Virus record (IMG/VR): IMGVR_UViG_3300043419_000731
Span: 32,001 to 96,000 of that record
DNA length: 64,000 bases
From: a virus
Strand: one strand, 5' to 3'
The translations under genes and the position numbers were made by a program. Below are positions 1,066 to 34,722 of the stretch, one piece after another; within the stretch, counting starts at the first letter, position 1, and every line of letters begins with the position of its first letter. A model generated the notes under the pieces. The model made no database searches. It was not told the origin of the DNA and worked only from the letters and a program-made list of their open reading frames with translations.

Positions 1066-1683
1066 ATGGCAGCAAAAGGAAGCCTTGAAGCAATCATTGA
1101 GGTTGCAAAGAAAGAAATTGGGACAATTGAAGGTCCAAAAGATAACGAAACAAAGTATGGTAAGTGGACAGGTGCAAACTTTCTACCATGGTGCCAGTCA
1201 TTTGTTTCATGGTGTGCATTTACTGCAGGCTTAGATCCAAAGAAGTATCCTAAGAGCGCAGCAACAGTAGCAGCATCTGACTGGTTCAAGAAGAATGAAA
1301 GATGGTCTGATGCTCGTAATGATGATCCACAGGCAGGAGACTGGATCTATTTTGATTTCCCAGATGATGGTGTCAATCGCATTTCACATGTAGGACTTTG
1401 TATTAAGAACAATGGCGATGGAACAATCCAGGTTATTGAAGGAAACACTTCAGGAACTGCTAAGGGAGATCAGCGCAATGGCGGAATGTGCGTAGAGAAA
1501 ACTCGTGGATATGTCAAGGACAACAAGAAGAAGCTGCTCAATGCAGTTGTTGGCTGGGGACGACCAGTTTATGCTGGAGAAGAAGATGCCCCACTTCTAA
1601 ACAAGTTGGCACCAGCACCCGCAAAGAAAGCAGCACCTGCTAAGCCAGCAGCTAAAAAAGTAGCACCAAAAAAGACTAAATAA
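1066..1683 (+). CDS. CHAP-domain peptidoglycan amidase (endolysin-like) with Lys/Ala/Pro-rich tail
   Basis: PWCQSFVSWC, SHVG and IEGNT are CHAP catalytic Cys/His motifs; C-terminal PAKKAAPAKPAAKK. Confidence 0.85.
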   Translation: MAAKGSLEAIIEVAKKEIGTIEGPKDNETKYGKWTGANFLPWCQSFVSWCAFTAGLDPKKYPKSAATVAASDWFKKNERWSDARNDDPQAGDWIYFDFPDDGVNRISHVGLCIKNNGDGTIQVIEGNTSGTAKGDQRNGGMCVEKTRGYVKDNKKKLLNAVVGWGRPVYAGEEDAPLLNKLAPAPAKKAAPAKPAAKKVAPKKTK

Positions 1684-2090
1684 TGTACGAATACTACGTT
1701 AGAAAAGTTGAAGGTGTAGTCGATGGGGACACAATAGATGTCCTCATCGACCTTGGCTTTGATATATTGTTTGCTTCTAGAGTTAGACTGGCTGGCATAG
1801 ACACACCAGAGTCAAGAACAAAAGATTTGGCAGAAAAGAAGCTTGGGCTAGAAGCTAAAGAGTATCTTAAATATAAATTAAAGGATGCTAAGTCTGTAAA
1901 GATTAAGACTGAAAAAATGGATTCGTCAGAAAAATATGGAAGAATACTGGGCTGGATATTTGTAGACGATCAGACTGTATCTATAAATGAGCAGATGATT
2001 TCAGATGGATATGCTTGGGGATACCTTGGGGACACAAAAGTTAAAGATTTTGAAGCCCTAGCAAAAGCGAGAGCAAACTCTAAAAAGTAG
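1683..2090 (+). CDS. Thermonuclease (SNase-like) family nuclease
   Basis: VVDGDTIDV, VRLAGIDTPE, KYGRILG. Confidence 0.9.
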   Translation: MYEYYVRKVEGVVDGDTIDVLIDLGFDILFASRVRLAGIDTPESRTKDLAEKKLGLEAKEYLKYKLKDAKSVKIKTEKMDSSEKYGRILGWIFVDDQTVSINEQMISDGYAWGYLGDTKVKDFEALAKARANSKK

Positions 2091-2120
2091 TTGCAATCTG
2101 CACCTACAAAATGATATAAT
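2091..2120 (+). promoter_or_regulatory. Sigma70/SigA-type promoter for hsp20
   Basis: TTGCAA (2091-2096), 18-nt spacer, TATAAT (2115-2120) preceded by TG. Confidence 0.65.
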
Positions 2121-2179
2121 AGATTAGTACCTGCCGAAATGGGGGTACTAATTTAACTCGCTTAAAAGGAGCAAAAAAA

Positions 2180-2596
2180 ATGGTAACAAATTTCGCCATG
2201 GATCTTTTCAAGGATCCATTTTTTATTGGTTTCAACCGAGAGTTGGAACGTTTTAACAGTCTAAGCAAAGTAAACAATACAGCGTTTCCGCCGTATGATT
2301 TGCTAAAGCTTGATGAGGATAACTATCAATTGTCTTTGGCAGTTGCTGGATTCACAAGAGATGATCTAACTGTATCGATTGAGGACGGAAGTCTTTGGAT
2401 TACAGGTGAAATCAAAGAGGTCTTAGATGCAGAAGTTGTTCATAAAGGAATAGCTGCACGTAAGTTTACAAGAATCTTTGAGCTTAGTGAATACATGGAA
2501 GTATCCAATGTTGAGCTAAAGGATGGAATGCTACATATCAATGTGGTACGAAACATCCCAAAGGAAAAGCAACCAAAAGTCCTAAAAATTAAATAA
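2180..2596 (+). CDS. hsp20: Small heat-shock protein (Hsp20/IbpA-like)
   Basis: FPPYDL, LAVAGF, HKGIAARKFTRIF, LKDGML; AGGAG RBS. Confidence 0.92.
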   Translation: MVTNFAMDLFKDPFFIGFNRELERFNSLSKVNNTAFPPYDLLKLDEDNYQLSLAVAGFTRDDLTVSIEDGSLWITGEIKEVLDAEVVHKGIAARKFTRIFELSEYMEVSNVELKDGMLHINVVRNIPKEKQPKVLKIK

Positions 2597-2600
2597 CATT

Positions 2601-2672
2601 CTGTACGTCGGTGGACATCGGGATATGTAGGAAGCGTACAGCGTACACCTGAGCATGTGTTTAAAAGGCTCA
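2601..2672 (+). ncRNA. Candidate structured RNA element (hairpin plus H-type pseudoknot)
   Basis: CTGTACG 2601-07 pairs with CGTACAG 2635-41; ACAC 2645-48 with GTGT 2657-60; TGAGC 2650-54 with GCTCA 2668-72. Confidence 0.4.
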
Positions 2673-2690
2673 CTATAGAAAAGGGAAGCA

Positions 2691-2873
2691 ATGCCAGTAT
2701 ACGAATATAAGTGTGAATGCAATGATAAGGTTGTTCCATTCAACATGTCAATTAAAGACTATCAGCCTAATCAAACCTGTGTTGATTGTGGTAAAGATAT
2801 GCAAAGACATTACACGCCAACAGGAATTCAGTTTAAAGGTAATGGCTTCTACAAAACAGATAATCCTAAGTAG
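2691..2873 (+). CDS. FmdB-type zinc-ribbon protein
   Basis: MPVYEYKCEC...CVDCG...FKGNGFYKTD. Confidence 0.8.
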   Translation: MPVYEYKCECNDKVVPFNMSIKDYQPNQTCVDCGKDMQRHYTPTGIQFKGNGFYKTDNPK

Positions 2874-2940
2874 TTTAAACTAACATTCTGCTATAATTAC
2901 TAAGTAATCAAAAATATTGCATTACTTAGGGGATCCTTAG

Positions 2941-5289
2941 TTGACTAGAAAGATTAAGTATTATCTAACCAGCCTTTTTATAATCGGCTGGCTTTTCCTT
3001 TTTGGACCTAGCATAGCAAGTGCTGATGAAGTTACTGTTCAAGTAACACCAGTAAATCCTTCTTCAGATACCGCCACAGCAACCACTCCTATTACAGTTG
3101 AGATAGTTGCAAATAAAGTAGAAGCAGCAGAAACAACACTACAGGCAGCAGCACAAACACAAAGCAATGCGATCATATCTGCAATTCAGGCAAATGTTCC
3201 AAATACAGACACTCAGACTGCTACTCAAATTGCTACAACTCAAGAGCCGATTGCAACTGCGGTTGCAGAGGCTACAGTCAAGGTTCAAGAGGCTAATAAT
3301 GTAATTCAATCTGCTGAGACAGCAGTAACAGTTGCAGTAACTGCCCAAGCAGCGGTTGAATCACAAACTGCTGTGGTTGCTACAGCAATTACAACAGTAG
3401 AGTCAGCCACAGCAGTAGTTGCTACTGCAACAGAGAATGTAGTATTGGCAACAGCAGCTGTAGAATCTCAAACAGCTGTAGTACAATTAGATACGCTGGC
3501 TGTAGCAGAAGCACAATCTACTGTACAAGAATTCACCAGTCCTGGATTAAAAGTAGAAGTTTACAATGTACAGGGTCAGAACAACGCTCCAGTACTTCCA
3601 GACAATGCTGTTCCTATTCATACAACTGTTGACACTAACGGGATTAATGAGCAATGGGGTGGCGGAAACGTCGCTGGTTCTAACCGTAGTGAGGATGTAA
3701 TTGTTAAATACACAGGAACTTGGACGCCTTCAGTTGATGTAACTCATGTTCTTGCTCCAGCAGATGATGGTGTAAAACTTTATCTTGATGGTCAGATTGT
3801 TATTAACGACTGGTATGATAAAGGCGGAGGAGGAAGCGTTAATCAGGTTTCTGTATCCGCTGGAACTAGCAAAGCTTTTGAGTTGTGGTACTACGAAAAC
3901 GGTGGTGGTGCTGGTGTTTGGTTCTACCGTTATAACTCATTAACAGGCTGGATAATAGCACCTGGTTCTGAGTTTTCTCAATCATCTGCCAGCCCAGAAC
4001 AGTTAGCGGCACTACAAGCTGCTCAGAACATTCTTGCTAGTGATACGGCAGTACTAACAACCCTCACAGCAGAAAAAACAGAGGCTGAAACAAATCTAAC
4101 AAACGCTCAATCAAACCTAACATCTGCTGAAACAAACCTAACAACAGAACAACAAAACCTCACAATAGCAAATCAAAACCTAACAATTGCTATTCAGACA
4201 GCAGATTCTTTTGCAAATACAGCAACAACAAAAGTAAATGAAGCAGTAACTGCAATGACAAATGCGGCACAGGTTACAGTTAATTATTATGCAGAGCAAC
4301 AAGCAGCAGCACAGGCCGCTGCAAATGCAGCAGCGGAAGCTGCAGCGCAAAGAGCAGCTGCACAAGTAGCAGCAACGGAAGCTGCCGCCAAAGCAGCAGC
4401 GGAAGCTGCAGCAAAGGCAGAAGTAGAAGCCAAAGCAGCAGCGGAAGCTGCAGCAAAGGCAGAAGCAGATCGTGTAGCCGCAGAGGAAGCCGCTGCTAAA
4501 GCAGAGGCTGATCGTGTAGCAGCAGAAGAAGCTGCAGCAAAGGCTGAAGTTGAAGCAAAAGAACAAGCAGAAGCAGATGCTAAGGCTGAAGCAGATAGAT
4601 TAGAAGCAGAGGCAAAAGCGGCAGCTCAGGCAGAAGCAGATGCTAAGGCTGAAGCAGAGGCAAAAGCTCAAGAAGAAGCAAACGCTAAAGCAGAAGCGGA
4701 GGCTAAAGCACAAGAAGCAGCAGATGCAAAAGCAGAAGCTGAAGCAAAAGCTGCAGAGCTAGAAACGGCAAAAAAAGAAGCAGAAAAATTAAAGAAAGCA
4801 GCAGCGGAAGGAAAGTTAAGTGAAGAGCAAAAGGAAGTTGTTGTAGAAAAACTACTTGAATCAATTGAGCCTGGAAAAACAGTTTCATCTGCAGATATAA
4901 AAGCAGCAGGCGTATCTTATTCCGATTTACCACCAACAACACCAGTAGATGTTCGTACTGATGAAAATGGAAATGCGGTTGTAATTACCGCAGCAGTTGC
5001 TGCTCAAGTAGAATTACTACAAAACCCAGGAGCTCTTGTAGAAGAATTATTTACAAATCCAGCGGCAGCATTAGCTGCATTTGGAAGTATAGGTGCAGAT
5101 ATGTCAGATGAAGAAAGAGAAGAAGCAACAGACATGGTTGTTGCTACAGTTGTAGCAGCAGGTGCAGCAATTAACGCAGCAGCAGTTGCTACAGGAGGAG
5201 CCACTGGAGGTGGCACAGGAGGCGGAGGAAGTTCTGGTGGAGGCTCAGGAGCAAATTCACCAGGTTCACGAGGAGGAAGAAGATGGTAA
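2941..5289 (+). CDS. Secreted/membrane-anchored protein with PA14 domain and TolA-like Ala/Glu/Lys repeat
   Basis: N-terminal signal peptide; ADDGVKLYLDGQIVINDW and YYENGGGA are PA14 motifs; long AEAEAKA helix; hydrophobic C-terminal segment and Gly-rich tail. Confidence 0.75.
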   Translation: MTRKIKYYLTSLFIIGWLFLFGPSIASADEVTVQVTPVNPSSDTATATTPITVEIVANKVEAAETTLQAAAQTQSNAIISAIQANVPNTDTQTATQIATTQEPIATAVAEATVKVQEANNVIQSAETAVTVAVTAQAAVESQTAVVATAITTVESATAVVATATENVVLATAAVESQTAVVQLDTLAVAEAQSTVQEFTSPGLKVEVYNVQGQNNAPVLPDNAVPIHTTVDTNGINEQWGGGNVAGSNRSEDVIVKYTGTWTPSVDVTHVLAPADDGVKLYLDGQIVINDWYDKGGGGSVNQVSVSAGTSKAFELWYYENGGGAGVWFYRYNSLTGWIIAPGSEFSQSSASPEQLAALQAAQNILASDTAVLTTLTAEKTEAETNLTNAQSNLTSAETNLTTEQQNLTIANQNLTIAIQTADSFANTATTKVNEAVTAMTNAAQVTVNYYAEQQAAAQAAANAAAEAAAQRAAAQVAATEAAAKAAAEAAAKAEVEAKAAAEAAAKAEADRVAAEEAAAKAEADRVAAEEAAAKAEVEAKEQAEADAKAEADRLEAEAKAAAQAEADAKAEAEAKAQEEANAKAEAEAKAQEAADAKAEAEAKAAELETAKKEAEKLKKAAAEGKLSEEQKEVVVEKLLESIEPGKTVSSADIKAAGVSYSDLPPTTPVDVRTDENGNAVVITAAVAAQVELLQNPGALVEELFTNPAAALAAFGSIGADMSDEEREEATDMVVATVVAAGAAINAAAVATGGATGGGTGGGGSSGGGSGANSPGSRGGRRW

Positions 5290-6152: not shown

Positions 6153-6386
6153 TTGTTACATTTAACGGAGAAAGGTGTTGAGATTTTTATCAAAAGGTCT
6201 CAATCAAAAACACAAGATTCATTTTGGAATAACTATGACCTTGTGATTTGGAAAAAAGATAACGGCGGCTATAGTTCTGTTGACGGAATGTATAGAAAAG
6301 ATGCTTGGGGCAAGTCAGAAAAAATTTCTGTCAGCCGTGAAGGAATTTGGAAGCTGCCAAAAAAATATGTCAAGTATTTTAAATAA
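6153..6386 (+). CDS. Hypothetical phage protein
   Basis: 77-aa ORF directly after the tRNAs, overlapping the whiB start. Confidence 0.6.
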   Translation: MLHLTEKGVEIFIKRSQSKTQDSFWNNYDLVIWKKDNGGYSSVDGMYRKDAWGKSEKISVSREGIWKLPKKYVKYFK

Positions 6387-6678
6387 TTTAGGTATAGAAA
6401 AAGAAGATCCAAAATGGTGGGACCTTGCGCTATGTAAAGGCATGGATACCAATCTATTTTTTGATAAATATGAATCAGATATCAACATCGCAAAAAGCAT
6501 TGATGAGGCATGCTTGTCTTGTCCAGTAATAAAGATATGCCATGATAGCGGGATTGAAAATGCAGATTATGGGGTATGGGGTGGAGTATTCCTAAGCTCT
6601 GGATCAGTTGATAAATCTAGAAATGCACATAAGACTAAAGATGTGTGGAGAAGAATAAAGGAAAAACATGTTTATTGA
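6367..6678 (+). CDS. whiB: WhiB-family Fe-S transcription factor
   Basis: ALC...FF...AC.SCPV...C...GVWGG; likely start is ATG 6367 rather than 6280. Confidence 0.9.
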   Translation: MSSILNNLGIEKEDPKWWDLALCKGMDTNLFFDKYESDINIAKSIDEACLSCPVIKICHDSGIENADYGVWGGVFLSSGSVDKSRNAHKTKDVWRRIKEKHVY

Positions 6679-22609: not shown

Positions 22610-23150
22610 CACATCTAACTCCTATATCCCCCTCCCTTTTATCTCCTTTCTAAGAGCCTCTGGAAGGCTTTATATGTGGAGTAAAGTGGAGCATTGTGGA
22701 GAATTTATACTCTAGATTATAGTTAATATACTATAGTTATATCTATCTAAAGATATATGTGTAATTGAGCATACCCCATCTTAAACGTAATGTCAATAGG
22801 ACAAATCGGACATATTTACCCCCATATAGCAGCATATTGATCTAAATTTGTCAAGGGATTTTTTGAGGAATTTTGATCTATTTTGCCATATTCTCTACAG
22901 ATTTGTCGACATTTAATAATGATTATATATTTAATTAGACATATTCTGTAGCATTTTCAGGGGTTTTTGTCAAGCCTTCGTAAATAGAAAAATTTGCCCC
23001 AACTTTCAGGGGTTTTGATCAGCTCTCGTAAATAGAAAATTTTGCCCATATGCCCACAGCATACAAAAAATCCACAGGATGTGGATAACCCTGTGGATAA
23101 TTTGGGCAATATATGTTTATCTATATCACCAGGCATTCTTCTCTCATTGT
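22610..23150. other. About 540-bp non-coding AT-rich strand-switch region (origin- or terminus-like)
   Basis: No ORF; alternating AT tracts 22720-22760; duplicated TTTCAGGGG...CGTAAATAGAAAA(A/T)TTTGCCC; two perfect DnaA boxes (23080-88, 23092-100). Confidence 0.6.
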
Positions 23151-23156
23151 ATATGC

Positions 23157-23528
23157 CTAATTGAATGGATCTAGTTCTTCACTCCGCCATCCAAATCTAT
23201 GTTCCTTTACTTCCTCCCGCTTTGGGACTGTAAAAGAACGGGAAGGCAACTTAAGATTAACTAAGTTGTTATCTTCTTGGTATGCTTTGATACATTCGTT
23301 CAATTCATTAGCAAGAGATAGACCTTCGGTTGTTTCATTTCTATTTAGATATACATTGTACATCTTGGCTTGCTCAGATATAATCGATACAATCATTTCC
23401 ATAATTCGGTCAATTGTGTGTAATGGCTGTTCAGCCATATATCGACCAAATACTGTTGGATTAAACCAATGGTCATCTGTTAGATTTACTAGTGATTCTG
23501 CTACTTTGATTTCAGGTGATTTACTCAT
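23157..23528 (-). CDS. Hypothetical protein
   Basis: 123-aa ORF with GGCGGA/GGA RBS-like sequence. Confidence 0.6.
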   Translation of the reverse strand: MSKSPEIKVAESLVNLTDDHWFNPTVFGRYMAEQPLHTIDRIMEMIVSIISEQAKMYNVYLNRNETTEGLSLANELNECIKAYQEDNNLVNLKLPSRSFTVPKREEVKEHRFGWRSEELDPFN

Positions 23529-23613
23529 CTGTCCGCCTTCCGCCTAACTGTCGATTATATCAAAAATAAGAGAGGGGGTCAAGGACCAACGAAGCCTGGA
23601 CCCCCACCCTGAA

Positions 23614-23763
23614 TTACTTTGCCTTGTTGCTTGGTGTTTCTGCAGTAAACTTAATACCCTTGGCCTCTGCCTCTGCTAGAGCTACCTTAGCTGCTCCTGA
23701 GAAACGACCACGCACACCTACTGTAATGCCCTGCTGCTTTAGATATTCACGCTTTGTTGCCAT
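23614..23763 (-). CDS. 49-aa stand-alone Lsr2 C-terminal-like DNA-binding protein
   Basis: Hand translation MATKREYLKQQGITVGVRGRFSGAAKVALAEAEAKG...; RE....G..V..RGR pattern; GAAAGGGG RBS. Confidence 0.55.
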   Translation of the reverse strand: MATKREYLKQQGITVGVRGRFSGAAKVALAEAEAKGIKFTAETPSNKAK

Positions 23764-23988
23764 TTGATTATCCCCTTTCAAGAGATGTTATTTGTACTAA
23801 TTATATAAGATATCCACGATTTTGTAAATACCTTCGTAACATATTTTTTTTGCCCTTAGATCAAATTGACTTGCTCAACTCGATCTTTAATTAATTTAGC
23901 AATGATGTTATGGGCTTCGATGTTTTCTGTTTCTGACCCACCCCATAGCAATTGCTGTGCTTTATTTAATTGATCATTGATGTACTCA

Positions 23989-25367
23989 TCACTCATCTTC
24001 ATCTTCGTCCTCATCCCCGTCATATAGTTCGATGATACCTTCTTCGGTCATCCAGTCCCGTACGGCCTCATAGAGGTCCTCTGTGCCATACTCCAGTGTG
24101 AACCCGTTCTTGTCAGCCTGCGTGAAGAACAGTTCCCACATTTCTTCTTCATCCTTGGCTGTACAGTAATCAGGGTCTCCGCCCTGCATAATGTCAGTCC
24201 AGATAGATAGCGCTACATCCCATGTCCACACCCAAACCAGGGGAGGGAAGACCCCTAGTTCACCAATCTTATCTACAATTAAAGTAATATCCTTGTAGAC
24301 ATCCTTCATTCGTGTACTTTCTTGTAGGTCTAATTGATTACTCATTACGTTCTCCAATCGCAAATGATAGTTGATATGTTAGATTATATAAAGATACTAA
24401 TGTATCAAGGGCACCTTCACATCTTGTGCGGTCCATAGAGTCCATGGCTTCTTCTGATTCATCTTCAATTGCTTGTGCTTCTGCCAACTCCTGCTCAGCA
24501 ATGAGCATTAGATTCTTTAGTTCACCGTGCATGATGTCAAGGCCTGATACTCCTGCGTTGACCATGCGCTGTAGGTGTGGCGGTAGTCCGATGTCTTCTG
24601 AATTCATTACATATCTCCTTCTGATAGAGTTAGCCAAGTAGTACAGTATTTGCAGTGGTCCATTTTTAGCGGGGAAGTAACAGAATGAGTACTATCAATA
24701 ATAGACTCAATCTTGTCTAGAACATCATCCAATGTCATTATTCATACCTTTCGTTTGAAGAGTTCATTATATCAGTGGCCACTGACAAAAGGTGCTTGGT
24801 TGCATAAATCTGTCCTTCTATATCTACCACATGGATAGAACAAGGATTCTCCTCTAGGTCTTGTTCTAAACTAATTAGATGCAACTTCATATATTCTAGG
24901 AAGTATGATGATCGTGTCATCCTATGCCTCCAGCTTCATTCTAATAATGTCATATGCGTCAATCGCACCTGCTGAATAATCATTCATTTCGTTGTCGCCT
25001 TCTTCTTCATATTGCTTACGCAATTCAGTTAGTTCAGCAATTCGACCTTCTGCAAATTTGCGGAGGGTATCAATAACATCTAAAGCAGCACATTCTCCGC
25101 AATAGGCATTGTAGTCTTCTTCTTCTGTATATGGAATAGATGTTCCACAATCATTACACCAAGACTCATCGCGCATTCCCATTATTCTCCCCATGGCCCT
25201 TCAATAAGTCCTTCTTGATATGCAGCAATAATATTCATGGTTTCATGAAGAATGCAATCGCAATCTCCACCGTTCATGTTTTCCATAAATTCAAAATGAG
25301 AATAGTTATCCTCATAGATAGCAGTAACTAGTTCATGAATTGCATATGGTTTTGTATCACTCTTCAT
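23989..25367 (-). CDS. Run of small acidic hypothetical ORFs (23989-24345, 24338-24637, 24738-24920, 24922-25194, 25182-25367)
   Basis: ORF track; overlapping starts and stops; GAAAGG-type RBS. Confidence 0.55.
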
Positions 25368-26085
25368 TTGATTCTACCTTTCGATATTCAGGGACATTGG
25401 TTTCTAAGTATATAGCATGGGTCTGACATCCTGCGACAGACTCTAGGTCTGCCTCACCAAGCCAGTTACATTTAGAACAGATTTGATTGTCACAATCTTC
25501 ACACCACTCTAGGGTATCAATAGCATCACAATCACGGCACTTAGTGTCATATTCTGATTCTGAGATAACTACACCACGGAGAATCTCACATTCTCCACCC
25601 CAGCCTGTTTCTTCCTCATATGATAAAGTAAATAGTAATGTTGGGTATTGTGCAGATAGTTTTTGTAGGGCAGGCATAGGGCGTGACCATGCTGTATTAA
25701 AGTTATAATAAACTACTTTGTTATCGCCATTAGCGACAGGCCCTTCAATATATGTATCAGGAAACTTTTCTAGTTCAGATACAGCCACATCCCATTTGGT
25801 ACCCCATTCACGGTTATTGAAGTTGTACCAATCGTTGCCCTCAAATGCCAAACTAAACTTTTCGGGGAAGACAGGTTGCGAATGATATGCATCAAGGTCG
25901 GTAGGTGCAATAATGTTGCGGAAACTAAAGATAGGATTAGGATACTTGCGTTGTTCCACAGAATAAGCCAAATCACCATTAGGTTTAATAGAATCTACAA
26001 ATGGTGTATTCATCTGTTCAACTAATTTATCTACTTGCTCAGGATTACCCTCAATAGTTAATCCATTATATACCCAGTTTGGCAT
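25357..26085 (-). CDS. DUF1281/YubB ferredoxin-like domain protein with C-terminal Cys cluster
   Basis: MPNWVYN...DWYNFNNREWGTKWD...FNTAWSRP...YEEETG; start ATG at 26085. Confidence 0.7.
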   Translation of the reverse strand: MPNWVYNGLTIEGNPEQVDKLVEQMNTPFVDSIKPNGDLAYSVEQRKYPNPIFSFRNIIAPTDLDAYHSQPVFPEKFSLAFEGNDWYNFNNREWGTKWDVAVSELEKFPDTYIEGPVANGDNKVVYYNFNTAWSRPMPALQKLSAQYPTLLFTLSYEEETGWGGECEILRGVVISESEYDTKCRDCDAIDTLEWCEDCDNQICSKCNWLGEADLESVAGCQTHAIYLETNVPEYRKVESNEE

Positions 26086-26264
26086 ATTTATCCTTTCGTT
26101 TGATATATGAGAATTATACACTGGACCACTGACAAATGGAATACATATGCCCTGTGTTCTACACCACATGGATCAGAGCTGATCCCATATTGTGAAATTT
26201 TCAGGGAATTTACTTGACACCCGTAAAAGAGATATGTTACCCTCAGTCTTTGCGGGCAAATAGA

Positions 26265-26290
26265 AATCCCCCAGTCAAAGCTGGGGGATT
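26265..26290. terminator. Hairpin terminator
   Basis: AATCCCCCAG-tcaaag-CTGGGGGATT. Confidence 0.7.
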
Positions 26291-26425
26291 ATGAATATGG
26301 CTGCCTGGATTTCCAACGAAAGAAATAAACCCGCTTTACTTAGCACCTGGCCCGTAGACTAGTAGATGCACCATTTCATTTCCTATTAAAACCAGGACCC
26401 AAGGTCCTGGATTAATTATAGCATA

Positions 26426-26791
26426 TTACTCAACTGAAACTAGGGAGTACTTGTCTACAAAGGATGAGAGACTAGTTGAAAATACTTCCGTAGTCAGGTC
26501 CTCTTCCATTAGTGTAAATGTCTTCTTATTCCAGTCAATGATTGGTACCCTGTGCTCATTATCTGCTAACTCATTAACGGTAATGCCCCAGCCAGTGGTT
26601 GACTGCCATTCTTCATTAATTAAATTAGAGATAGCAATGCGTGTTGCATATGATTCATCAGACCACCTTGGCTCTGCTGCTCGTACAGCGCTAGCCAAAT
26701 TCTGCAACATCATGTGCCCCGCCCAGTGTCCATACAAAAACACTGTATCGCCCTTGCGGTCTTTAAACCCAAAGTTTGCTCTGTCGCCCAT
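26426..26791 (-). CDS. Hypothetical phage protein
   Basis: MGDRANFGF...LYGHWAG; GGAA RBS. Confidence 0.65.
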   Translation of the reverse strand: MGDRANFGFKDRKGDTVFLYGHWAGHMMLQNLASAVRAAEPRWSDESYATRIAISNLINEEWQSTTGWGITVNELADNEHRVPIIDWNKKTFTLMEEDLTTEVFSTSLSSFVDKYSLVSVE

Positions 26792-26792
26792 T

Positions 26793-26990
26793 TTATTCCG
26801 CCGTTTCTAGTTGTGGTGTTACTTCTACCTTGTTCAATTCTATCACTTCATAGGCCGCTCTGTCTAGGCCCCTTTTATTGCTGTTATAATGATGGCCACA
26901 GAAAGCAAGCTCTCCGCCAACTAGTTTAACTAGATACATAGAGTCTGCAGATCCGCAGGCATCGCATGGAATATATTCTCTATCTCTCAT
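26793..26990 (-). CDS. Small zinc-binding protein (CxxC...GELxFCGHH)
   Basis: CDACG...GGELAFCGHHY. Confidence 0.6.
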   Translation of the reverse strand: MRDREYIPCDACGSADSMYLVKLVGGELAFCGHHYNSNKRGLDRAAYEVIELNKVEVTPQLETAE

Positions 26991-27141
26991 AGAGAGCCAC
27001 CCTCAATCATTTCTGCAAGGCGGTCAAGAATCCATGTATCGATATCAGCGATATCAATCTCTGCAAGCTTTTCCATAAGTTCCTCACGAGCAAACTTATA
27101 TCCATCCTCAAAGCCATCTTTATAATCTGACATCTTATCTC

Positions 27142-27345
27142 CTAATATCCTGTCGCTTCTTTATCTGACCAGTATGATTCTGTTAAACCATACTTATCAC
27201 GAATGCGACTTACTTTCTCAATACTACCAGTTCCGATATTGAATGTCAATGGTCCGCATTGTTCTGGGTCCAAACCAATCAACTCCGCTTCCCAGGTAGC
27301 CCGTGCAAAGGCTACCTGAGATGGAGCAGTTAATTCAAAATACAT
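27142..27345 (-). CDS. Hypothetical protein
   Basis: ORF track; coupled to the upstream gene. Confidence 0.55.
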   Translation of the reverse strand: MYFELTAPSQVAFARATWEAELIGLDPEQCGPLTFNIGTGSIEKVSRIRDKYGLTESYWSDKEATGY

Positions 27346-27959
27346 TAGTACGCACCTTCTTCTACTCGGTCAATCTCAAAGTTATTCACAGACATTTCTG
27401 ATGCATATGAATCAACAGTTAGATTAGAAGATACAAAGTCTTCGATACCGTCAAAGTCACCTGTCAAATCAACTTCAACAGTTGCATCAACACGAACCCA
27501 AACAGTAACTTCAATTTCCTTGGTTAGAGGAACATCGAACATCTCTGCAATCTCAGCCAATGATTCTTGGTCTGATGAATCTGCGTAGTTCTCTTCAAGG
27601 AATGTACGGAGTTGTGATTCCTTGCGGTACCACTGGTTCTGCTTCTCAGTAAGATTCTTAAGTTGCCAAACCATGTGACGAATATCTGATTCAGTATATG
27701 TTTTAGTAATTAGGTCATCACCCTCGACCCACTGCAACTGCATTGTTACTGGTGTTGTTGTTTCTTCCATTGTTTCCTCTTTCGTTGTTGTTGTAGAAGG
27801 AATTGTAGCATCGACCACTGACAAAAGGATGCAGGCGGTCCCGCATCTGCAAGTGAGGTCCATCACACCATTAGGCCATCCATAGCCATCCTTAAATGTG
27901 TATTCAATTAATGCATCACAATCACCTGGGCATATCCAGGTATATTTCTGATAGTTCAT
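27345..27959 (-). CDS. Hypothetical protein with N-terminal Cys motifs
   Basis: Start MNYQKYTWICPGDC after a GAAAGAGGG RBS. An internal CAACGAAAGAGG leader near 27780 may start a second product (MEETT...). Confidence 0.55.
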   Translation of the reverse strand: MNYQKYTWICPGDCDALIEYTFKDGYGWPNGVMDLTCRCGTACILLSVVDATIPSTTTTKEETMEETTTPVTMQLQWVEGDDLITKTYTESDIRHMVWQLKNLTEKQNQWYRKESQLRTFLEENYADSSDQESLAEIAEMFDVPLTKEIEVTVWVRVDATVEVDLTGDFDGIEDFVSSNLTVDSYASEMSVNNFEIDRVEEGAY

Positions 27960-28111
27960 TTTCCCTCTTTCGTTGTATAGGAGTATTATAGGGCATAGCA
28001 CTGACAAATGGAATAGTTTTCAGGGATTTTCTTTGTGATCCGTAACACAAAAAACTGGCCTTCCCTATTGCGGGCGCATACTTATGCATTGATATGCATA
28101 AATATGTTTTG

Positions 28112-28185
28112 CGATCCATAACGGACTTGAACCGTCGACCTCTACCGTGACAGGGTAGCGCTCTAACCAACTGAGCTAATGGACC
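28112..28185 (-). tRNA. tRNA-Asp(GTC)
   Basis: Reverse complement GGTCCATTAGCTCAGTTGGTTAGAGCGCTACC-CTGTCAC-GGTAGAGGTCGACGGTTCAAGTCCGTTATGGATCG. Confidence 0.93.
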
Positions 28186-28228
28186 AATAAGGTGAGCAGT
28201 TTTAAATCTTGCTCAGGATTATTTTTAT

Positions 28229-29233
28229 TTAGAAAGTTGCAACCATTCGATACAACTTATTTTTTTCTGCGGTAAGAACAGGGTCAAATCCTGATGCACC
28301 CGCCATAAGTGATTCAGAGTTGCCACGCCCTGAACGATAGTAATCTAGGCGCTCAGTTAGCGCATTGAATGCGCCCCACTTTGTGCCCTTGATTGTGGCG
28401 TTAGTTGGTGAGTTATGATAAAGGTCATCGATTAGGACAACTTTATTTTCCCACTTCTTGATTGCGCCCTTAGCATCTTTCTCAGGCTTTGGATAGATTG
28501 TCTGAATCAACTTTGAGAATTCAGCATCGGTGATTGCTTGAGAATAAAGTGCTTGAGCATTCTTCTCAAATTCATCAAAGTATCCAAGCGCAAGCCCAAG
28601 AGTTTCACGAGCAACTTGAATGCGACCTTCAACAGATTGCGTGTGGCGAATCTTGAAAGATTGCTTAGCGCTCTTCATTGCAAGGTTGAGAGTGTTTTGG
28701 CATACAACACGAACAGGGGTAACCGCTGCTTGAACAGCAACAGAACCATCGTGTGATGTCCATACGATTAGATATAACTTGGTTTCGTCATTGGCGCCTT
28801 GTGGGTCAAGAACCATTGTGCGAGGAATATCCACAGTGCCGAATACAACTTTGCCCTGCTTAAGAGAACCAGCAGATTCCCAACGGCAGTCAGCGTTAGC
28901 ATCGTGAATTGCATCAGCGAATGCAAACAATTCTTCATTCTGCACAGGCTTGTAGCGCTTACCAACAGTAGCAAGAACATCAGTTCCGCCATTGAATGGG
29001 TTATCACGCAACACGAGAGATGCAGTTGAAACATCATTCCAAGATTCTGGAATATGCTCAGCGATTGGAGAAAGACGAACATTCCAATTTGCTAACTTTG
29101 CTTCTTCAAGCATTGTTGCAGTTGTAACTTCTTCATCTTGTGTAAAGATGCGGTTTGCAAGGTTGTGCCAAGCAGGAGCACCACGGAGAGCGAATGCAAC
29201 TTCGCCATTTTCGACTTCGAGATTATGAGCCAT
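28229..29233 (-). CDS. DUF932 family phage/plasmid-like protein (TIGR03299-like)
   Basis: MAHNL...PAWH.L...VG.RY.PVQN...ESAGSL..G...TSHDGS...TPVRVVCQNTL...RHT...GT.WGAFNA.TE..D. Confidence 0.88.
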   Translation of the reverse strand: MAHNLEVENGEVAFALRGAPAWHNLANRIFTQDEEVTTATMLEEAKLANWNVRLSPIAEHIPESWNDVSTASLVLRDNPFNGGTDVLATVGKRYKPVQNEELFAFADAIHDANADCRWESAGSLKQGKVVFGTVDIPRTMVLDPQGANDETKLYLIVWTSHDGSVAVQAAVTPVRVVCQNTLNLAMKSAKQSFKIRHTQSVEGRIQVARETLGLALGYFDEFEKNAQALYSQAITDAEFSKLIQTIYPKPEKDAKGAIKKWENKVVLIDDLYHNSPTNATIKGTKWGAFNALTERLDYYRSGRGNSESLMAGASGFDPVLTAEKNKLYRMVATF

Positions 29234-29410
29234 TTTTTGCCTTTCGTTTGGTTGATTAAGCAATTATAACAGGTGGGTCTGACATTTACAAGGTTAGTTA
29301 GTCATTTGTCCGAATTGTCTGACGTGATCAATCTCACAAATTTTCAGGGTTTTCCACAGATCCCCGTAACGCTGTGGATAACCCCGCAAAAGCGGGGGCC
29401 GAGCTGGGGA

Positions 29411-31276
29411 TTAACTCCCCAACTCTACCTTAGTCGCATTTCGAATTATGTTTTTATTAAATTCAACTGTCTTCTCATCAAGAAACATTGCAGTTGTCTT
29501 TTTCTTTTTTACATTATCAAAAACGTAAGCATTTACTTTGCCGCTAAAGTTTCTGATGTTACTGAATACTAATTCAGTTAAGTATTCTTTATCAACACCT
29601 TGATCCGAATAAATCGTGATGTCGTTCATTTTGTTTGCATCGTAGATTTCTACTCTGAAACGATTTGCCATTGTATTACCTTTGTTAGTAGTTGTCCCCG
29701 AAGGGAGAGCAGTTTGGCGACATACTCAGGTCGTTGGATTAGTTAGAGATAACGAGCAATTTGCTTCATTGTTGAAGCATTAACTGTTTCCTCATCTGTC
29801 ATCTTTAGAATTGTGAGAGCATTTGTGATGTCCTCTACAATTTCGTTGTATGAGTGCTGGTGCATAATTGTAAAATCACGCTGTGGCTCTGTTGGCAAAT
29901 CTTTCTCTGCAACTGTCAAATCAAAGTCAATGTTGAGAGTGTTATTCCAAGAGCGATAAGAAGTGCGAAGGTTCTCTGACTTCTTGATGTTTGCGATTGC
30001 ATAATCCTGAAGTTCCTTCTGCCAAATCTTACGAGCCTTTTCATACTTAGCCTCGTTTGCGCCTTGCTCAGCATACTCTTTCTTGATTGTTGCTAACTTT
30101 GTTTCCAAAGCCTTAATTACCTTTGGTGTTGCCACCTTTACTGTGATTGCTCTTGACATTTTTCCTCTTTCGTTGGTTGGTTGATGTTATGAGTATTATA
30201 GCAGGGGGGTCTGACATTTCCCCCGAAGGGGGGAGAGTTCTTACTTACGACATTGGGCTAGAACACTCTCCTAAACTGCCCCTGTTTCGATTATTTAGTT
30301 ATACTAGAGAACTTGCTGAAACTGTTGTCCAGCGTGTTTCCTTCGTTGGCATTTCTAGCAACACACGCACCGAGCCAGATGCTTGTGGGTGGATTTCTTT
30401 AATCACACCTGTCTTCTTTGACTTGAGGGTGGTGAATAAATCTCCAACCTGATACAACTTGTCTTGTATTGTCATTTGCTTCCTTCTTTCTGTGTAGGGT
30501 AGTATTGTAGCATTGGGGTCTGACATCTGTCTAGCCCTATCTCACTATTTGAGAGAATTATTGTGTGATTAGTATCACAAGTAGTCGGTTAGGTCGCCAT
30601 CCATTATTTCGCTGACATCCACGCCTTCAGACTCAGCAATTGCATCCCATAGATCGGATTCTGTAAAATCTCCTTCAGGGTGCCACTCAGCTAAAATCTC
30701 ATAGACATTACTCATCGTAGTCCTCCTGTGGTAGCCAAGCATCTAGGTGGTGAGCATCTACGATAGCCGATGCAGGGCAAGTATCTTGACCTCGCCAAAA
30801 TACGCCTTCAGGAAGGCTAATCTCACGGGAGTAGTCCTCCTCATAGTATGCGTCAATTGCTTCGATGCAAGCATCTACCATAGCGACGGGGACGGGTGGA
30901 TAATGATTAGCCTGAAGGTGATAAGCAAGTCCAGCCTCAAGTGATAAATCTTCTGCAAGTCCTACTGCGGTTGTGTATCCCATTTTATTTCCTTTGTTCG
31001 TTGGTTGATAAGAGTATTGTATCAGGGGGCACTGACATTATCAGTGCCCCCATTAGATTATTTAGAGATAGATAGTTCTGCCCAAGAGTAGCCCGTGTTT
31101 GCAACTTCCAAAACCTTTGCTATTTCTAGTGCAGCGTGTGTTGCTTCTGAACACATCTTTGTAAGTTCATCCTCAGATAAAGATAATAGGGCAGGCAGTA
31201 ATCGAGCCTCAATTTTATCTAGGTCAATAGTAGCCATAAAACTAACTGTGTGTGGTACTTTCATTACATTAGCCAT
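29411..31276 (-). CDS. Early-type small hypothetical genes (29411-29671, 29743-30159, 30299-30475 KOW/SH3-like, 30708-30983, 31058-31276), most with their own promoter
   Basis: ORF track; most are preceded by the TGTCAG-N10-TAYAAT promoter and a GAAAGG leader. Confidence 0.65.
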
Positions 31277-31659
31277 TTGTTGCCTTTCGTTGTTGGTATG
31301 AGAGTATTATAGCCGAAGCCACTGACATTTCATAATCCATTTACGGCGTGTCGCAGCTTTTGTGAGAATGATCACAAATTTTCAGGGTCTGTGGATAACT
31401 CCCGTAAGCCTGTGGAAAACCCCCCACAAAAGAGAGGGCCTGCATATTTATTCAGTCTTCTGAATATCTATGCTTGCGCTTTCGTGTATATTTTTTCTTA
31501 TTGCGAACAGGGGTTGCGGCATTTGATCTCCGCAACTCCTGCACACGCTTAATTCTATTCAACACATTTGCATTTCTTAACACTTAACACATCTCCTTCA
31601 ATATATACCGCACCAAAATCTTCACAACTATCACACACAAACATTTCTACCAGTTGCAT

Positions 31660-31845
31660 TTATTTAGCCGCCTTCATCTTGTAGTTACTTGCTTCGTGAA
31701 ATCTTACGACATCAAATCGTGGATTATCTTTTGCAAACATCTCCGCAAAATCTGTAACGACCTTAGAAAATAAAGCGGGGTGAGTTTTGTTGCTCATATA
31801 GTTTAGAATTTCGGCAGTTGCCACATAATCTTTGCGAGTCATCAT
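31660..31845 (-). CDS. Hypothetical protein, paralog of 32727-32912
   Basis: MTRKDYV..A...F..DNPRFD...F.EA shared. Confidence 0.7.
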   Translation of the reverse strand: MMTRKDYVATAEILNYMSNKTHPALFSKVVTDFAEMFAKDNPRFDVVRFHEASNYKMKAAK

Positions 31846-32470
31846 TTTGTTACGACCTTTCGTCCTTCACGATAAAATATGCGTGTATACATTTTGCCAG
31901 TTGGCATTTGGAGATTTACAGTTGCGTATTCATTAGCCCAACCCCAATCAACAAAATTGTTAAATGCGGTGAAAGCCTCTAAAGCGTCGGCATAGTTCTT
32001 ATTGAAGTGGATAGGCTTGCTATCATATGAAACAGATATCTGATACATATAGTTTTCCTTTCGTAGTTATTTATAGAGATATTATAGCGGAGAGGTCTGA
32101 CAAATTAGTCTTCGCACTCGCAAGGCTTGGAGTAATCAAACTCGCAGAAGTAACAGCCTTGATATTCATCATGTGCCTTGCACACATATCGGAATTGCAT
32201 TTCATCGCAACAGAAGTGCGATTCATCTAGAACCGAATAAAACTCGGTTTGGTCAATTACATCTATCATTTATTCCCCCGTATTCACCGCTACATAGCGG
32301 TATGTATCTTTAATTGAATTGGTAGGGCGAACCTGAACCTTGTAGGTATCTGCATTTGCATACCAGACATCATCATTTTTTTCTGCGGAGATAATCTCAC
32401 CCTTTACAGAATTAGAGTAATACATTTTTCCCACTAGTAGGGACTCGACTGAATAAGCATTGGCTGACAT
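31842..32470 (-). CDS. Two small hypothetical genes (31842-32048, 32270-32470)
   Basis: ORF track; each has the repeated promoter and leader. Confidence 0.6.
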
Positions 32471-32726
32471 AGTGCCACCTCTTTCGTTGTTGTTATATGG
32501 ATATTATAGCCTATGGGACTGACAAAGTGTTAATTTGGCAAGGTTTTATCTCAATATGTGGAGCGTGGGCTATGTGATTAGCATCACATCAAAATGTCCG
32601 AATTGTCTGTCAAATCGACACGCCGCAAATTTTCAGGGTTTCTGTAACAATCACGTAACGACACGCCCGACCCCGTGCTTTTGCGGGCGGATCAACTTTT
32701 GTCAAGTCGACACGCCGTGATCTTAG

Positions 32727-32912
32727 TCACCTTTCTGCATAAACGGCTTCTTTAAACTTAGCTCGATCAAAACGGGGATTGTCTTCCTCGAATATGTCGC
32801 ACATATTATTAACTAGAAACTTTCTAGCCTCATAACTAAACATCTCGGCGGGGAAACCATGATTCATTGAATTAAATAAACCTGCAATACGCACATAATC
32901 TTTTCTAGTCAT
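32727..32912 (-). CDS. Hypothetical protein, paralog of 31660-31845
   Basis: MTRKDYVRIA...FEEDNPRFDRAKFKEA. Confidence 0.7.
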   Translation of the reverse strand: MTRKDYVRIAGLFNSMNHGFPAEMFSYEARKFLVNNMCDIFEEDNPRFDRAKFKEAVYAER

Positions 32913-33994
32913 TAGAGAGCACCTTCCTGAAATAATCCGATTTCTAAATTAAGTAATTCTTCTGGTGTTGCATCTTCTAAATCAACCCAGCCAGCACCTT
33001 CGTCATCAAGACGGAAAAATTCAATGTGTCCCATTAGTTAGCCTCCTCTGTTCCGAACAATGCAGACATTGTAGCGTTAGCCTGTGACATTGTAGCGATA
33101 GCCTTCTGAAGGCTTGCCTTGCGTTGCGCTTCTATGTGCGCCTTGTATTCTTCTAGGTTCATTACTGACCTTCTTTCGTTGTTGTTATAGTAGGAATTAT
33201 AGCGGAAGGGTCTGACAAATACCAGACGACACGCCGTGTTTTAAGAAATTCTTTTTTGTGATTAATCTCACAAAATTCCAGGGGTTGTGGATAAGTATCG
33301 TAACCTGTGGATAACCCCCCACAAAAGCGGGGGCGTGTCAAGTCGACACGCCGTTAGGCTAATGTGATTCGTGCCACATCTCACGCATATCACGCCACAC
33401 AAGGCGGGCCATATATAGGGCGGGGATACCGATAGCCATCTGCACGATAGTAGTTATTAGTCTATTCATTTTATTCTTCCTCTTCTGGCGTTAACCCTAA
33501 AGCTTCAACACATTCAAAACATACTGGCGATTCAAAACGATAATCGAATAAATCATCCTCTAAATTCATTACGCATTCTTCACAGTAGGTCATTGCTTAT
33601 TCTTCTTTCTTTTGATCATCTTGTATGCAACTAGTACAACAGTGGCGGGAATAATTACCTGCCATGAGAAAGCGATATAGCAAACATATGTATCGAATAC
33701 GAATCCGTAGTCATTAATCTCTATAGTCATTAGTTATCCCAGCAATCTACGCAAGTTACTACATCATCAACATCTAGCCACATACTAGAAACATCTTCAT
33801 CGCAAGTGCGACATTGTAGAGTTATCATTACTTACCCACCTTTACATCTTGAACATTAGCACGAAACTTTTGAGCCTTAGCGACATCGCTATCATTTAAT
33901 TCTTTTATAACGCTATCTACATCCTTGATGTTGTTAGCGATGTTGTTAATAGATAGTAGGCGGTTACCTTGCCAAATTGAATAAGTGATAGTCA

Positions 33995-34207
33995 TTAGTT
34001 ATCTCCAAACATTGCTAGAACGGTATCGACCTCTTCATCGGTGAGGTGGTCAATCTCAATTGCCTTAGTGAAACCGAAGACATCATCGTCTTCATCTTCT
34101 TCTTGCTCTACCTCATCATTGAGGTAAGCGTATTGGTCTGCTACATCTTCTTGAATTGTGTCCCACTTAGAGAGTGAGTTAGAGCGGGTATCATATGAGT
34201 AAGACAT
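33995..34207 (-). CDS. Acidic hypothetical protein
   Basis: 70 aa, D/E-rich; promoter variant at 34241. Confidence 0.6.
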   Translation of the reverse strand: MSYSYDTRSNSLSKWDTIQEDVADQYAYLNDEVEQEEDEDDDVFGFTKAIEIDHLTDEEVDTVLAMFGDN

Positions 34208-34722
34208 TTAGTTCTTCTTTCTTTAGTTTCTTATAATGGTATTGTAGCCGATAGAGCCGACATATTGGGGGATATAGAGGGGGTGTGTCGTGTGAGTTAC
34301 CTCACAGGCAGTTGATACACTCGCAACCCTTAGAGCGAATGAGGTACTTGAGTACCTCTTTGCGTGTGTATGTGTCTAGCCCATAAGATGAAGACACACC
34401 GCCATTGTGATACTCATGCACGATAGTGCTAAAGAGTTGTTCTGTAAGTTGAGTCATGTTCGACCCCTTTCTTGTTGTTATACCTTAATTATTGCATGGG
34501 GGTACGACAAATTGCAACTCGCAAAACGGACATTAAAGACATCTTGCCAAAATACTTTGTGATGCTCGTCACATTGTTCCTATGCTCACGCTCAATATGT
34601 GCGGTCTATCCTAAATGTCCGATTTTACAGAATATGTGTATCATACAAATTAAAAATATATTAACATTTTTAGAAATATGAGATTACAGTCAACTGAATT
34701 CTACACAGTGTATAATTGATAC

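Follow-up and report, generated by a model that had tools for sequence, protein, structure and literature searches.

What are the repeated spacers in the small-gene region of an uncultured lake phage for, and do they read the state of the host or soak up its regulators? The question is raised by a 64,000-nucleotide stretch of DNA (the window, in whose coordinates positions are given below), which covers bases 32001-96000 of the 120,465-base IMG/VR phage record IMGVR_UViG_3300043419_000731 (~40% G+C) and holds, at 22.6-34.7 kb, a block of ~36 small genes, all on the minus strand and nearly all of unknown function. The initial annotation described a composite intergenic cassette recurring in this block and proposed that it reads or titrates three global regulators, DnaA, CRP and WhiA. 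In the analysis presented here the existence of a repeated multi-site module under selection is supported by word enrichment and conservation, and the explanation that we put slightly above even is that host Crp and DnaA, together with further readers, would control PafBC-type promoters in combination; most likely the cassettes adjust phage expression to the state of the host and do not serve to titrate its proteins.

The recurring cassette lies where it had first been noticed, although its proper reading direction is that of the minus strand. It then starts with a terminator hairpin and a second GC hairpin, followed by a DnaA box, TTACG, 15 nt (often containing a second DnaA box) and CCCTGAAAAT, and continues with the palindrome TGTGA-N6-TCACA, short words (GACAATTCGGACA and CGGCGTGTCG), the promoter TGTCAG-N10-TAYAAT and, 12-18 nt past its -10 box, the Shine-Dalgarno leader AACGAAAGG and ATG. 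In the 120-kb genome TGTCAG-N10-TATAAT occurs nine times, always on the minus strand and at 24.7-33.2 kb (~15 copies if looser variants are counted), and TTACG-N15-CCCTG eight times, again only on the minus strand, at 22.96-33.30 kb. All six copies of the palindrome fall at 30.5-34.6 kb, against 0.12 expected from dinucleotide shuffles of the window, while the DnaA box TTATCCACA has eight copies (six of them at 23.0-33.3 kb) against 0.84 expected; in neither case did any of 100 shuffles reach the observed number.

The same bias is seen in relatives of the phage: of 301 related IMG/VR contigs with genomes of ~105-116 kb, the 80 best supplied the family counts given here and below. These loci are mutually related, so that counts of contexts overstate independence, and a test on 47 clusters (below) corrects for this only in part. 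In the relatives TGTCAG-N10-TAYAAT is found 675 times on the gene strand and never on the opposite one, and for TTACG-N15-CCCTG the numbers are 143 and 0. When orthologous spacers are aligned the motif columns stay constant and the filler columns diverge, in agreement with the earlier view that the elements are not mere remnants of duplication.

The promoter part is the strongest input to the cassette. For PafBC-dependent promoters the consensus is tGTCgg(N10)tA(N3)T; the -26 element spans -28 to -23, the -10 box is canonical and a -35 element is lacking (PMC8635444). PafBC is activated by single-stranded DNA (PMC11804915). The initial annotation had listed 'TAYAAT-N10-CTGACA' among the cassette parts, and this part does recur, but its nature as a PafBC-type promoter was missed: on the minus strand the geometry TGTCAG-N10-TAYAAT is exactly that of the 22-nt PafBC (RecA-NDp) promoter motif. 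The likeness to these promoters of Mycobacterium and other Actinobacteria covers TGTC(A/G)G, the 10-nt spacing, TAnnnT and the lack of a conserved -35 element (PMC8635444). The logo of 492 unique family copies reads aaaTGTCAGtg-N8-TAtAAT and holds no information at -35; a few copies have four or five of six matches there, by chance or in addition. The likeness extends to the candidate host G280, an actinobacterial genome of 1.41 Mb, in which TGTCAGTGGCACCTGTTACCTT lies upstream of recA and is matched by the near-identical TGTCAGTGGCACCTGTTATACT in relatives of the phage. Other copies of the motif in G280 precede genes for an SNF2 helicase, a C5 methylase and a DUF6504 protein, several of them leaderless, and an adjacent pair of WYL genes is present in the candidate hosts G280 and G010, while no WYL protein was found in the phage. 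The phage case differs in that ~15 such promoters would drive phage genes of unknown function and that several of them have phased CRP-type sites and DnaA-box modules upstream, an arrangement of which we found no account for PafBC promoters of hosts.

As a separate observation on these promoters, eight PafBC-type motifs lie within 30 kb of the G280 genome (G280:C1:431900-460000), before genes for an SNF2 helicase, a C5 DNA methylase, a CAAX protease-like protein, a TPR protein and small open reading frames (ORFs). Several are leaderless, with the start codon 6 nt past the -10 box. This cluster may be a mobile or defence island controlled by PafBC.

TGTGA-N6-TCACA is the site of actinobacterial Crp (Rv3676)/GlxR. 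Across 322 unique family contexts the half-sites TGTGA and TCACA are invariant and the A/T-rich N6 is free, and in 341 unique contexts the centre of the palindrome stands preferentially 42, 52, 62 or 72 nt from where the -10 box begins. This 10-bp phasing persists when contexts are collapsed into 47 clusters by downstream gene (Rayleigh p ~1e-5). The Crp protein of the candidate host matches M. tuberculosis Crp with E = 6e-79, has an identical recognition helix (GASRETVNKALADFA) and matched the structures 3d0s, 3i54 and 3mzh. A Rex operator (TTGTGAA-N4-TTCACAA, with A at position 6 and T at 11 of the 16-mer) was considered and rejected, as none of the 322 sites has this form. As in class I CRP promoters, a perfect palindrome with a variable N6 precedes the core promoter and keeps to one face of the helix, in 10-bp steps. 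The phage centres are 2-3 bp off the positions of E. coli class I sites, assuming a start 7 nt after the -10 box; moreover, the partner promoter is of PafBC type and there is a second class of palindromes half a turn out of phase. The CRP-type identity of the palindrome is well founded on the consensus and on the host protein predicted to read it.

In the upstream half of the cassette it is the bipartite element TTACG-N15-CCCTGRAAT, and not the DnaA boxes, that forms the conserved core; it stands directly after the GC hairpin. DnaA boxes occupy two slots around it, slot 1 just upstream of TTACG and slot 2 inside the N15. Both slots are filled with DnaA boxes in 98 of 201 unique family copies (direct/direct in 49, direct/inverted in 41, inverted/inverted in 8) and a single filling essentially never occurs; slot 1 holds GGCGTGTCG instead in 33 of the 201. 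Within single orthologous spacers a DnaA box may stand in one orientation or the other, or give way to another word. This is hard to explain unless paired DnaA sites, separated by about two turns of the helix, are under selection. TTATCCACA also clusters in the dnaA-dnaN spacer of the candidate hosts G280, G108, G010 and G085, all small actinobacterial genomes. The DnaA-type identity of the boxes is likewise well founded, and both word assignments of the initial annotation stand, with exact consensus, enrichment, the oriC word, the host Crp helix and the flipping of boxes in their slots all pointing the same way. The third proposed regulator, WhiA, is not supported: GACAC occurs only as the core of CGGCGTGTCG, which has five copies and was rejected as a host word, as the candidate host genomes show no enrichment of it. 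In its geometry the bipartite element resembles a promoter or a landing pad for a protein, and in one relative it lies upstream of a canonical sigma-A promoter; a promoter reading on the plus strand finds no -10 box.

Four spacers (A-D) hold a complete cassette and at least five more hold subsets. The layout recurs as first described, but the order of parts is not fixed, the palindrome being upstream of GACAATTCGGACA in cassette A and downstream of it in cassette C. The features are as follows.

29234-29410, minus strand: cassette A, ahead of the DUF932 gene (28229-29233), with two hairpins, DnaA box, bipartite element, palindrome, GACAATTCGGACA, promoter and leader; kept in 59 unique orthologous spacers with variable fillers
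29263-29284, minus strand: PafBC-type promoter of cassette A, TGTCAG-N10-TATAAT (-26 element and -10 box)
29304-29319, minus strand: word GACAATTCGGACAAAT of cassette A, containing the 14-mer CAATTCGGACAAAT
29323-29338, no strand: CRP-type palindrome of cassette A with one mismatch (CGTGA-N6-TCACA), perfect in most relatives
29342-29369, minus strand: bipartite element of cassette A, TTACG-N15-CCCTGAAA, with the inverted DnaA box TTTTCCACA in the N15 (29350-29358 on the plus strand)
29373-29381, minus strand: slot-1 DnaA box TTATCCACA of cassette A, directly after hairpin 2
29382-29399, minus strand: GC hairpin 2 of cassette A (CCCCGC/GCGGGG), -13.2 kcal/mol
29401-29425: hairpin 1 of cassette A, -18.9 kcal/mol, likely the terminator of the gene upstream of the cassette
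31277-31451, minus strand: cassette B, with promoter 31306-31327, palindrome 31361-31376 and hairpin 31422-31439
31345-31353, opposite strand: word CGGCGTGTC of cassette B
31380-31407, minus strand: bipartite element of cassette B, with a direct DnaA box inside (31390-31398) and DnaA box TTTTCCACA at 31411-31419
32471-32726, minus strand: cassette C, a flavour without DnaA boxes, with promoter 32503-32524, palindrome 32573-32588 and GACAATTCGGACA at 32595-32607
32631-32658, minus strand: bipartite element of cassette C, with a hairpin at ~32669-32693
32616-32624, 32659-32667 (in slot 1) and 32708-32716: GGCGTGTCG in cassette C
33163-33358, minus strand: cassette D, with promoter 33196-33217, palindrome 33257-33272 and hairpin 33317-33334
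33276-33303, minus strand: bipartite element of cassette D, with a direct DnaA box inside (33286-33294) and a DnaA box at 33306-33314
33227-33235 and 33344-33352: GGCGTGTCG in cassette D
27985-28049 (spacer 27960-28060), minus strand: partial cassette after tRNA-Asp, with bipartite element 28018-28045, 11 nt upstream of promoter 27985-28006
28034-28049: one-mismatch palindrome overlapping bipartite element 28018-28045
26113-26290 (spacer 26086-26300), minus strand: partial cassette with hairpin 26265-26290, bipartite element 26199-26226 and promoter 26113-26134
Spacer 30476-30579, minus strand: promoter 30504-30525 and perfect palindrome 30564-30579, 62 nt from its centre to the first base of the -10 box
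Spacer 34208-34306, minus strand: promoter variant TGTCGG-N10-TACAAT (34241-34262) and perfect palindrome 34291-34306, 52 nt
Spacer 34458-34573, minus strand: first promoter of the block, degenerate (TGTCGT-N10-AATAAT, 34488-34509), and perfect palindrome 34558-34573, ~72 nt
24766-24787, minus strand: PafBC-type promoter without upstream cassette
27802-27823 (inside an ORF), 30195-30216, 31016-31037 and 32081-32102: further promoters without upstream cassette

The promoter at 27802-27823 lies, with its leader and an ATG (27770), in frame inside a 204-aa ORF (27345-27959, minus strand), and because promoter, leader and start are complete and in frame the C-terminal part of this ORF could also be a separate product. 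An inverted repeat of 7 bp, GGATCAG-CT-CTGATCC, is found at 26140-26185 (minus strand) between the bipartite element and the promoter of a 242-aa DUF1281-like gene, and GTATTCCATTTGTCAG is common to the promoters 26113-26134 and 27985-28006. The inverted DnaA pair of cassette A is able to form a hairpin, while the pairs of B and D are direct. Three other explanations of the cassettes were tried and rejected. ORFs with similar translations overlap them (29294-29389, 31341-31445, 32610-32705 and 33162-33341), but small peptides are contradicted by the lack of a ribosome-binding site, by TTG starts and by 1-nt indels and orientation flips in relatives. For a structured RNA, Rfam scored only the tRNA-Asp in 22.3-34.9 kb, and CGGGG/CCCTG pairing is not conserved. 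Direct repeats of 19 nt on either side of a part of cassettes C and D have no more than an 11-nt core in common and are therefore sites, not target-site duplications.

In the proposed mechanism the 12-kb minus-strand block would be a chain of ~15 short transcription units for small genes, each driven by a hybrid promoter (TGTCAG at -26, 10 nt, TAYAAT at -10, no conserved -35) which host RNA polymerase with sigma-A would read only when PafBC, activated by single-stranded DNA, is bound; a leader with the predicted ribosome-binding site AACGAAAGG would follow. A subset of these promoters would be preceded by a modular control region built of independent sites. The palindrome, with centres near -54.5, -64.5, -74.5 and -84.5, would most likely be read by host Crp-cAMP (cyclic AMP) as a class-I-like co-regulator. 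After the GC hairpin would come the strand-specific bipartite element TTACG-N15-CCCTGRAAT with its two slots filled both or neither with DnaA boxes, and host DnaA would probably gate whatever acts there. The additional words CGGCGTGTCG and CAATTCGGACAAAT, the latter also marking the dnaA/oriC region of candidate hosts, would belong to the same control region, and the same bipartite element would serve in tandem, beside a DnaA-box cluster and AT-rich DNA, at a probable origin. Every binding event in this scheme, and the sign of the regulation, is a prediction; what the DNA itself shows is the layout of the cassettes, the enrichment and conservation of their words, the phasing, the slot logic, and host factors and host sites that match.

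Should the predicted readers act on these sites, a phage lineage abundant in freshwater would tie a whole gene block to the single-stranded DNA alarm (PafBC), to cAMP (Crp) and to replication status (DnaA), wired to three host signals without encoding any of those regulators. It would be a compact natural case of combinatorial promoter logic on 'sigma adaptation' promoters and would open a way to study how genes are regulated in lake actinobacteria that are streamlined and hard to grow. The pairing rule of the DnaA slots and TTACG-N15-CCCTG are concrete, testable objects, and the shared oriC-region word is a clue to the host.

Several points weigh against this interpretation. The evidence comes from sequence, and G280 and its family are candidate hosts only, on the basis of shared words. 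The perfect TGTGA-N6-TCACA is absent from three candidate host genomes, which weakens the case for a host CRP regulon built on this exact word; by the same token the phage sites are better than any in the three genomes, a superiority that fits strong regulation and is also compatible with titration. In 9 of the 47 clusters the palindrome sits at 57 nt, half a helical turn out of phase. The distance from the bipartite element to the downstream promoter ranges from ~10 to ~110 nt with no clear phasing, to our knowledge the element matches no known sigma-factor consensus, and TTACG-N15-CCCTG was rejected as a host promoter class, with 6 hits against 3 for the control in 301 Actinomycetia genomes. 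Titration, too, would be well served by high-affinity sites of perfect consensus after replication of the phage genome to many copies.

An alternative that bears directly on these points is that the palindrome, CGGCGTGTCG, GACAATTCGGACA and TTACG-N15-CCCTG are look-alike operators read by phage regulators, for example small unannotated early proteins, the likeness to CRP sites being coincidental or competitive. It draws on the lack of enrichment of CGGCGTGTCG and TTACG-N15-CCCTG and of perfect palindromes in the candidate hosts, on ~35 early proteins without known function and on a weak sigma-70 region-4-like helix-turn-helix (HTH) in a 49-aa ORF elsewhere in the genome. However, no match to the CRP-type HTH (HTH_Crp_2) or to DnaA domain IV was found in the phage, and among the 20 block and flanking proteins scanned Pfam gave no DNA-binding domain, while the palindrome is exactly the site of the Crp/GlxR orthologue in candidate hosts and the DnaA boxes are the host oriC word. 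We consider phage readers distinctly unlikely.

The second alternative starts from the distal end of the block, where the region 22650-23110 has the features of an origin.

22650-23110, minus strand: probable DnaA-dependent origin at the distal end of the block, its layout kept in relatives
23092-23100 and 23080-23088: direct DnaA boxes of the origin, with a weak inverted box at 23068-23076
23004-23031 and 22955-22983: two tandem 48-bp units, each with TTACG-N15/16-CCCTGAAA
22900-22949 and 22700-22749: AT-rich stretches (0.80-0.82)
22676, 22686 and 22696: three CTCCAC words exactly 10 bp apart

There is no gene downstream of this region. The phage encodes RecA and DnaB-like, DnaG-like and Pol III alpha proteins. 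With the last three present and an initiator missing, a DnaA-dependent origin at 22.65-23.1 kb is a reasonable and probable assignment. A sigma-A-like promoter, TTGACA-17-TATGCT (22768-22796, minus strand), reads into ~100 nt of AT-rich DNA with the three CTCCAC words, ending at a hairpin at ~22655-22675 with no ORF; its transcript could be a small RNA or an origin-activating transcript. A link to the host origin is given by CAATTCGGACAAAT of cassette A, whose single perfect copy in the G280 genome is in the dnaA-dnaN spacer beside DnaA boxes. In three further genomes of the G280 family the word or a one-mismatch form stands ~100 nt upstream of dnaA, between DnaA boxes, and other one-mismatch hits are in coding DNA and look like chance. 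Its presence at dnaA/oriC in four genomes points to that family as host, and also suggests that two or more types of word are common to the phage and to the dnaA/oriC control region of the host.

On this basis the DnaA pairs and TTACG-N15-CCCTG might be origin-type modules (for loading of an initiator or DnaA, or origin-activating promoters) scattered as secondary origins or copy-control sites and not regulators of mRNA promoters. The tandem bipartite element by the three-box cluster, the AT-rich DNA and the phased CTCCAC words with no gene downstream, all kept in relatives, speak for such a role, as do the set of replication proteins without an initiator, the specificity of CAATTCGGACAAAT for the dnaA/oriC region in four host-family genomes and the pairing of boxes about two helical turns apart. 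Half of the family bipartite copies, however, have no DnaA box, the cassettes lack an adjacent AT-rich unwinding region comparable to 22.7-22.95 kb, and cassette copies always stand between a terminator hairpin and a promoter, oriented with the genes. We give replication modules a low probability as a substitute for transcriptional control, with which they are also compatible. A combination of the two is a tentative idea that we hold to be unlikely: the upstream half (hairpin, DnaA box, TTACG, DnaA box, CCCTGAAAAT) would be a DnaA-gated initiation element for a second transcript class, used in tandem at the phage origin, and would with CAATTCGGACAAAT consist of pieces copied from the host dnaA/oriC region, coupling the small-gene programme and the start of replication to DnaA-ATP, cAMP-CRP and the single-stranded DNA alarm (PafBC).

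The other half of the original proposal, soaking up, is the weaker one. Sites that titrate host DnaA, CRP and perhaps others off the chromosome once the phage genome is amplified have a precedent in datA, which titrates DnaA in E. coli. They would be favoured by perfect-consensus and probably high-affinity sites (six perfect palindromes against none in a whole candidate host genome) and by small hosts that probably have few regulator molecules. However, there are only ~6 palindromes and ~10 DnaA boxes per phage genome, every site lies within a promoter-bearing spacer, and a sponge needs neither phasing to the -10 box nor fixed slots nor strand specificity; the sites do not form a dense, promoter-free array like datA. 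Promoter control fits better than a pure decoy: the palindromes are phased, the DnaA slots follow a rule, the parts are ordered by strand and the sites are few. We regard the decoy as very unlikely. The notion that the repeats persist as recombination substrates or by duplication and gene conversion without binding any regulator, as in promoter-terminator shuffling, rests on hairpin-promoter composites repeated between small genes of variable content (8 of the 36 block genes are present in 10 or fewer of 80 related loci) and on the shared layout of the PeSL (early promoter and stem-loop) cassettes of T4-type phages (PMC2839356, PMC4122927), but is scarcely probable given diverging fillers around constant short words, DnaA boxes that flip within a slot, which gene conversion would not produce, and a cassette A junction, the sole one examined, that shows no breakpoint and keeps its upstream neighbour in 79 of 80 loci.

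A literature search found no description of this site combination in a phage. CtrA sites in Caulobacter phages are phage sites for a host cell-cycle regulator and embody the same idea, phage genes wired to a host cell-cycle master regulator; here DnaA, CRP and PafBC sites would be joined in one module. DnaA stimulates transcription from pR at ori-lambda, and DnaA boxes are present at P1 oriR; the likeness to these systems is the DnaA-box cluster at the probable origin. Of the precedents found, the injection-stop region of T5-like phages with its paired DnaA boxes comes closest (bioRxiv 10.1101/866236); common to both are consensus TTATCCACA pairs at fixed positions in conserved repeats of a large virulent-type phage. 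In contrast to these, the boxes described here are spaced ~20 bp rather than 3 bp, occur in several spacers in a phage of an actinobacterial host, and flank or fill TTACG-N15-CCCTG between terminator and promoter. The likeness to PeSL cassettes is a stem-loop and a promoter between small variable early genes (PMC2839356, PMC4122927), but here extra regulator sites are present, the promoter is not of sigma-70 consensus and shuffling is unsupported at the single junction examined.

Among the neighbouring features of the block, only two near-consensus sigma-A promoters were found, both on the minus strand (23800-23828, TTTACA-17-TATAAT; 23554-23582, TTGACC-17-TATAAT). The spacer of the first contains the DnaA-box-like ATATCCACGA, a 10-mer also found beside dnaA in host-family genomes, and this promoter drives a 49-aa ORF (23614-23763) whose Lsr2-like appearance by eye was not confirmed by Pfam. 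Many of the small proteins flanking cassettes are only 38-60% identical between relatives. There are no close cultured relatives of the phage, the only similarity being a distant one of DUF932 to Streptomyces phages. The actinobacterial host, also proposed in the initial annotation, is supported by the WhiB gene.

6280-6678, plus strand: WhiB-like protein (132 aa) that has four Cys, a GVWGG turn and a basic tail at its C-terminus, adjoining a tRNA-Asn/tRNA-Leu pair

Assignment of the host through the phage ribonucleotide reductase was tried and rejected. Contigs with 59-90% identity to it are found in metagenome-assembled genomes labelled Bacteroidia, Saccharibacteria, Brevundimonas, cyanobacterium and others, and these are most likely phage contigs misplaced in unrelated genome bins. 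Finally, outside the window, a 1146-aa ORF is found at both ends of the record (1236-4673 and 116954-120391 in record coordinates) in copies that are 93% identical, which looks like wrap-around assembly of a circularly permuted genome over two strain variants, or a diverged terminal repeat; the unique genome length would be ~115.7 kb, matching the relatives.

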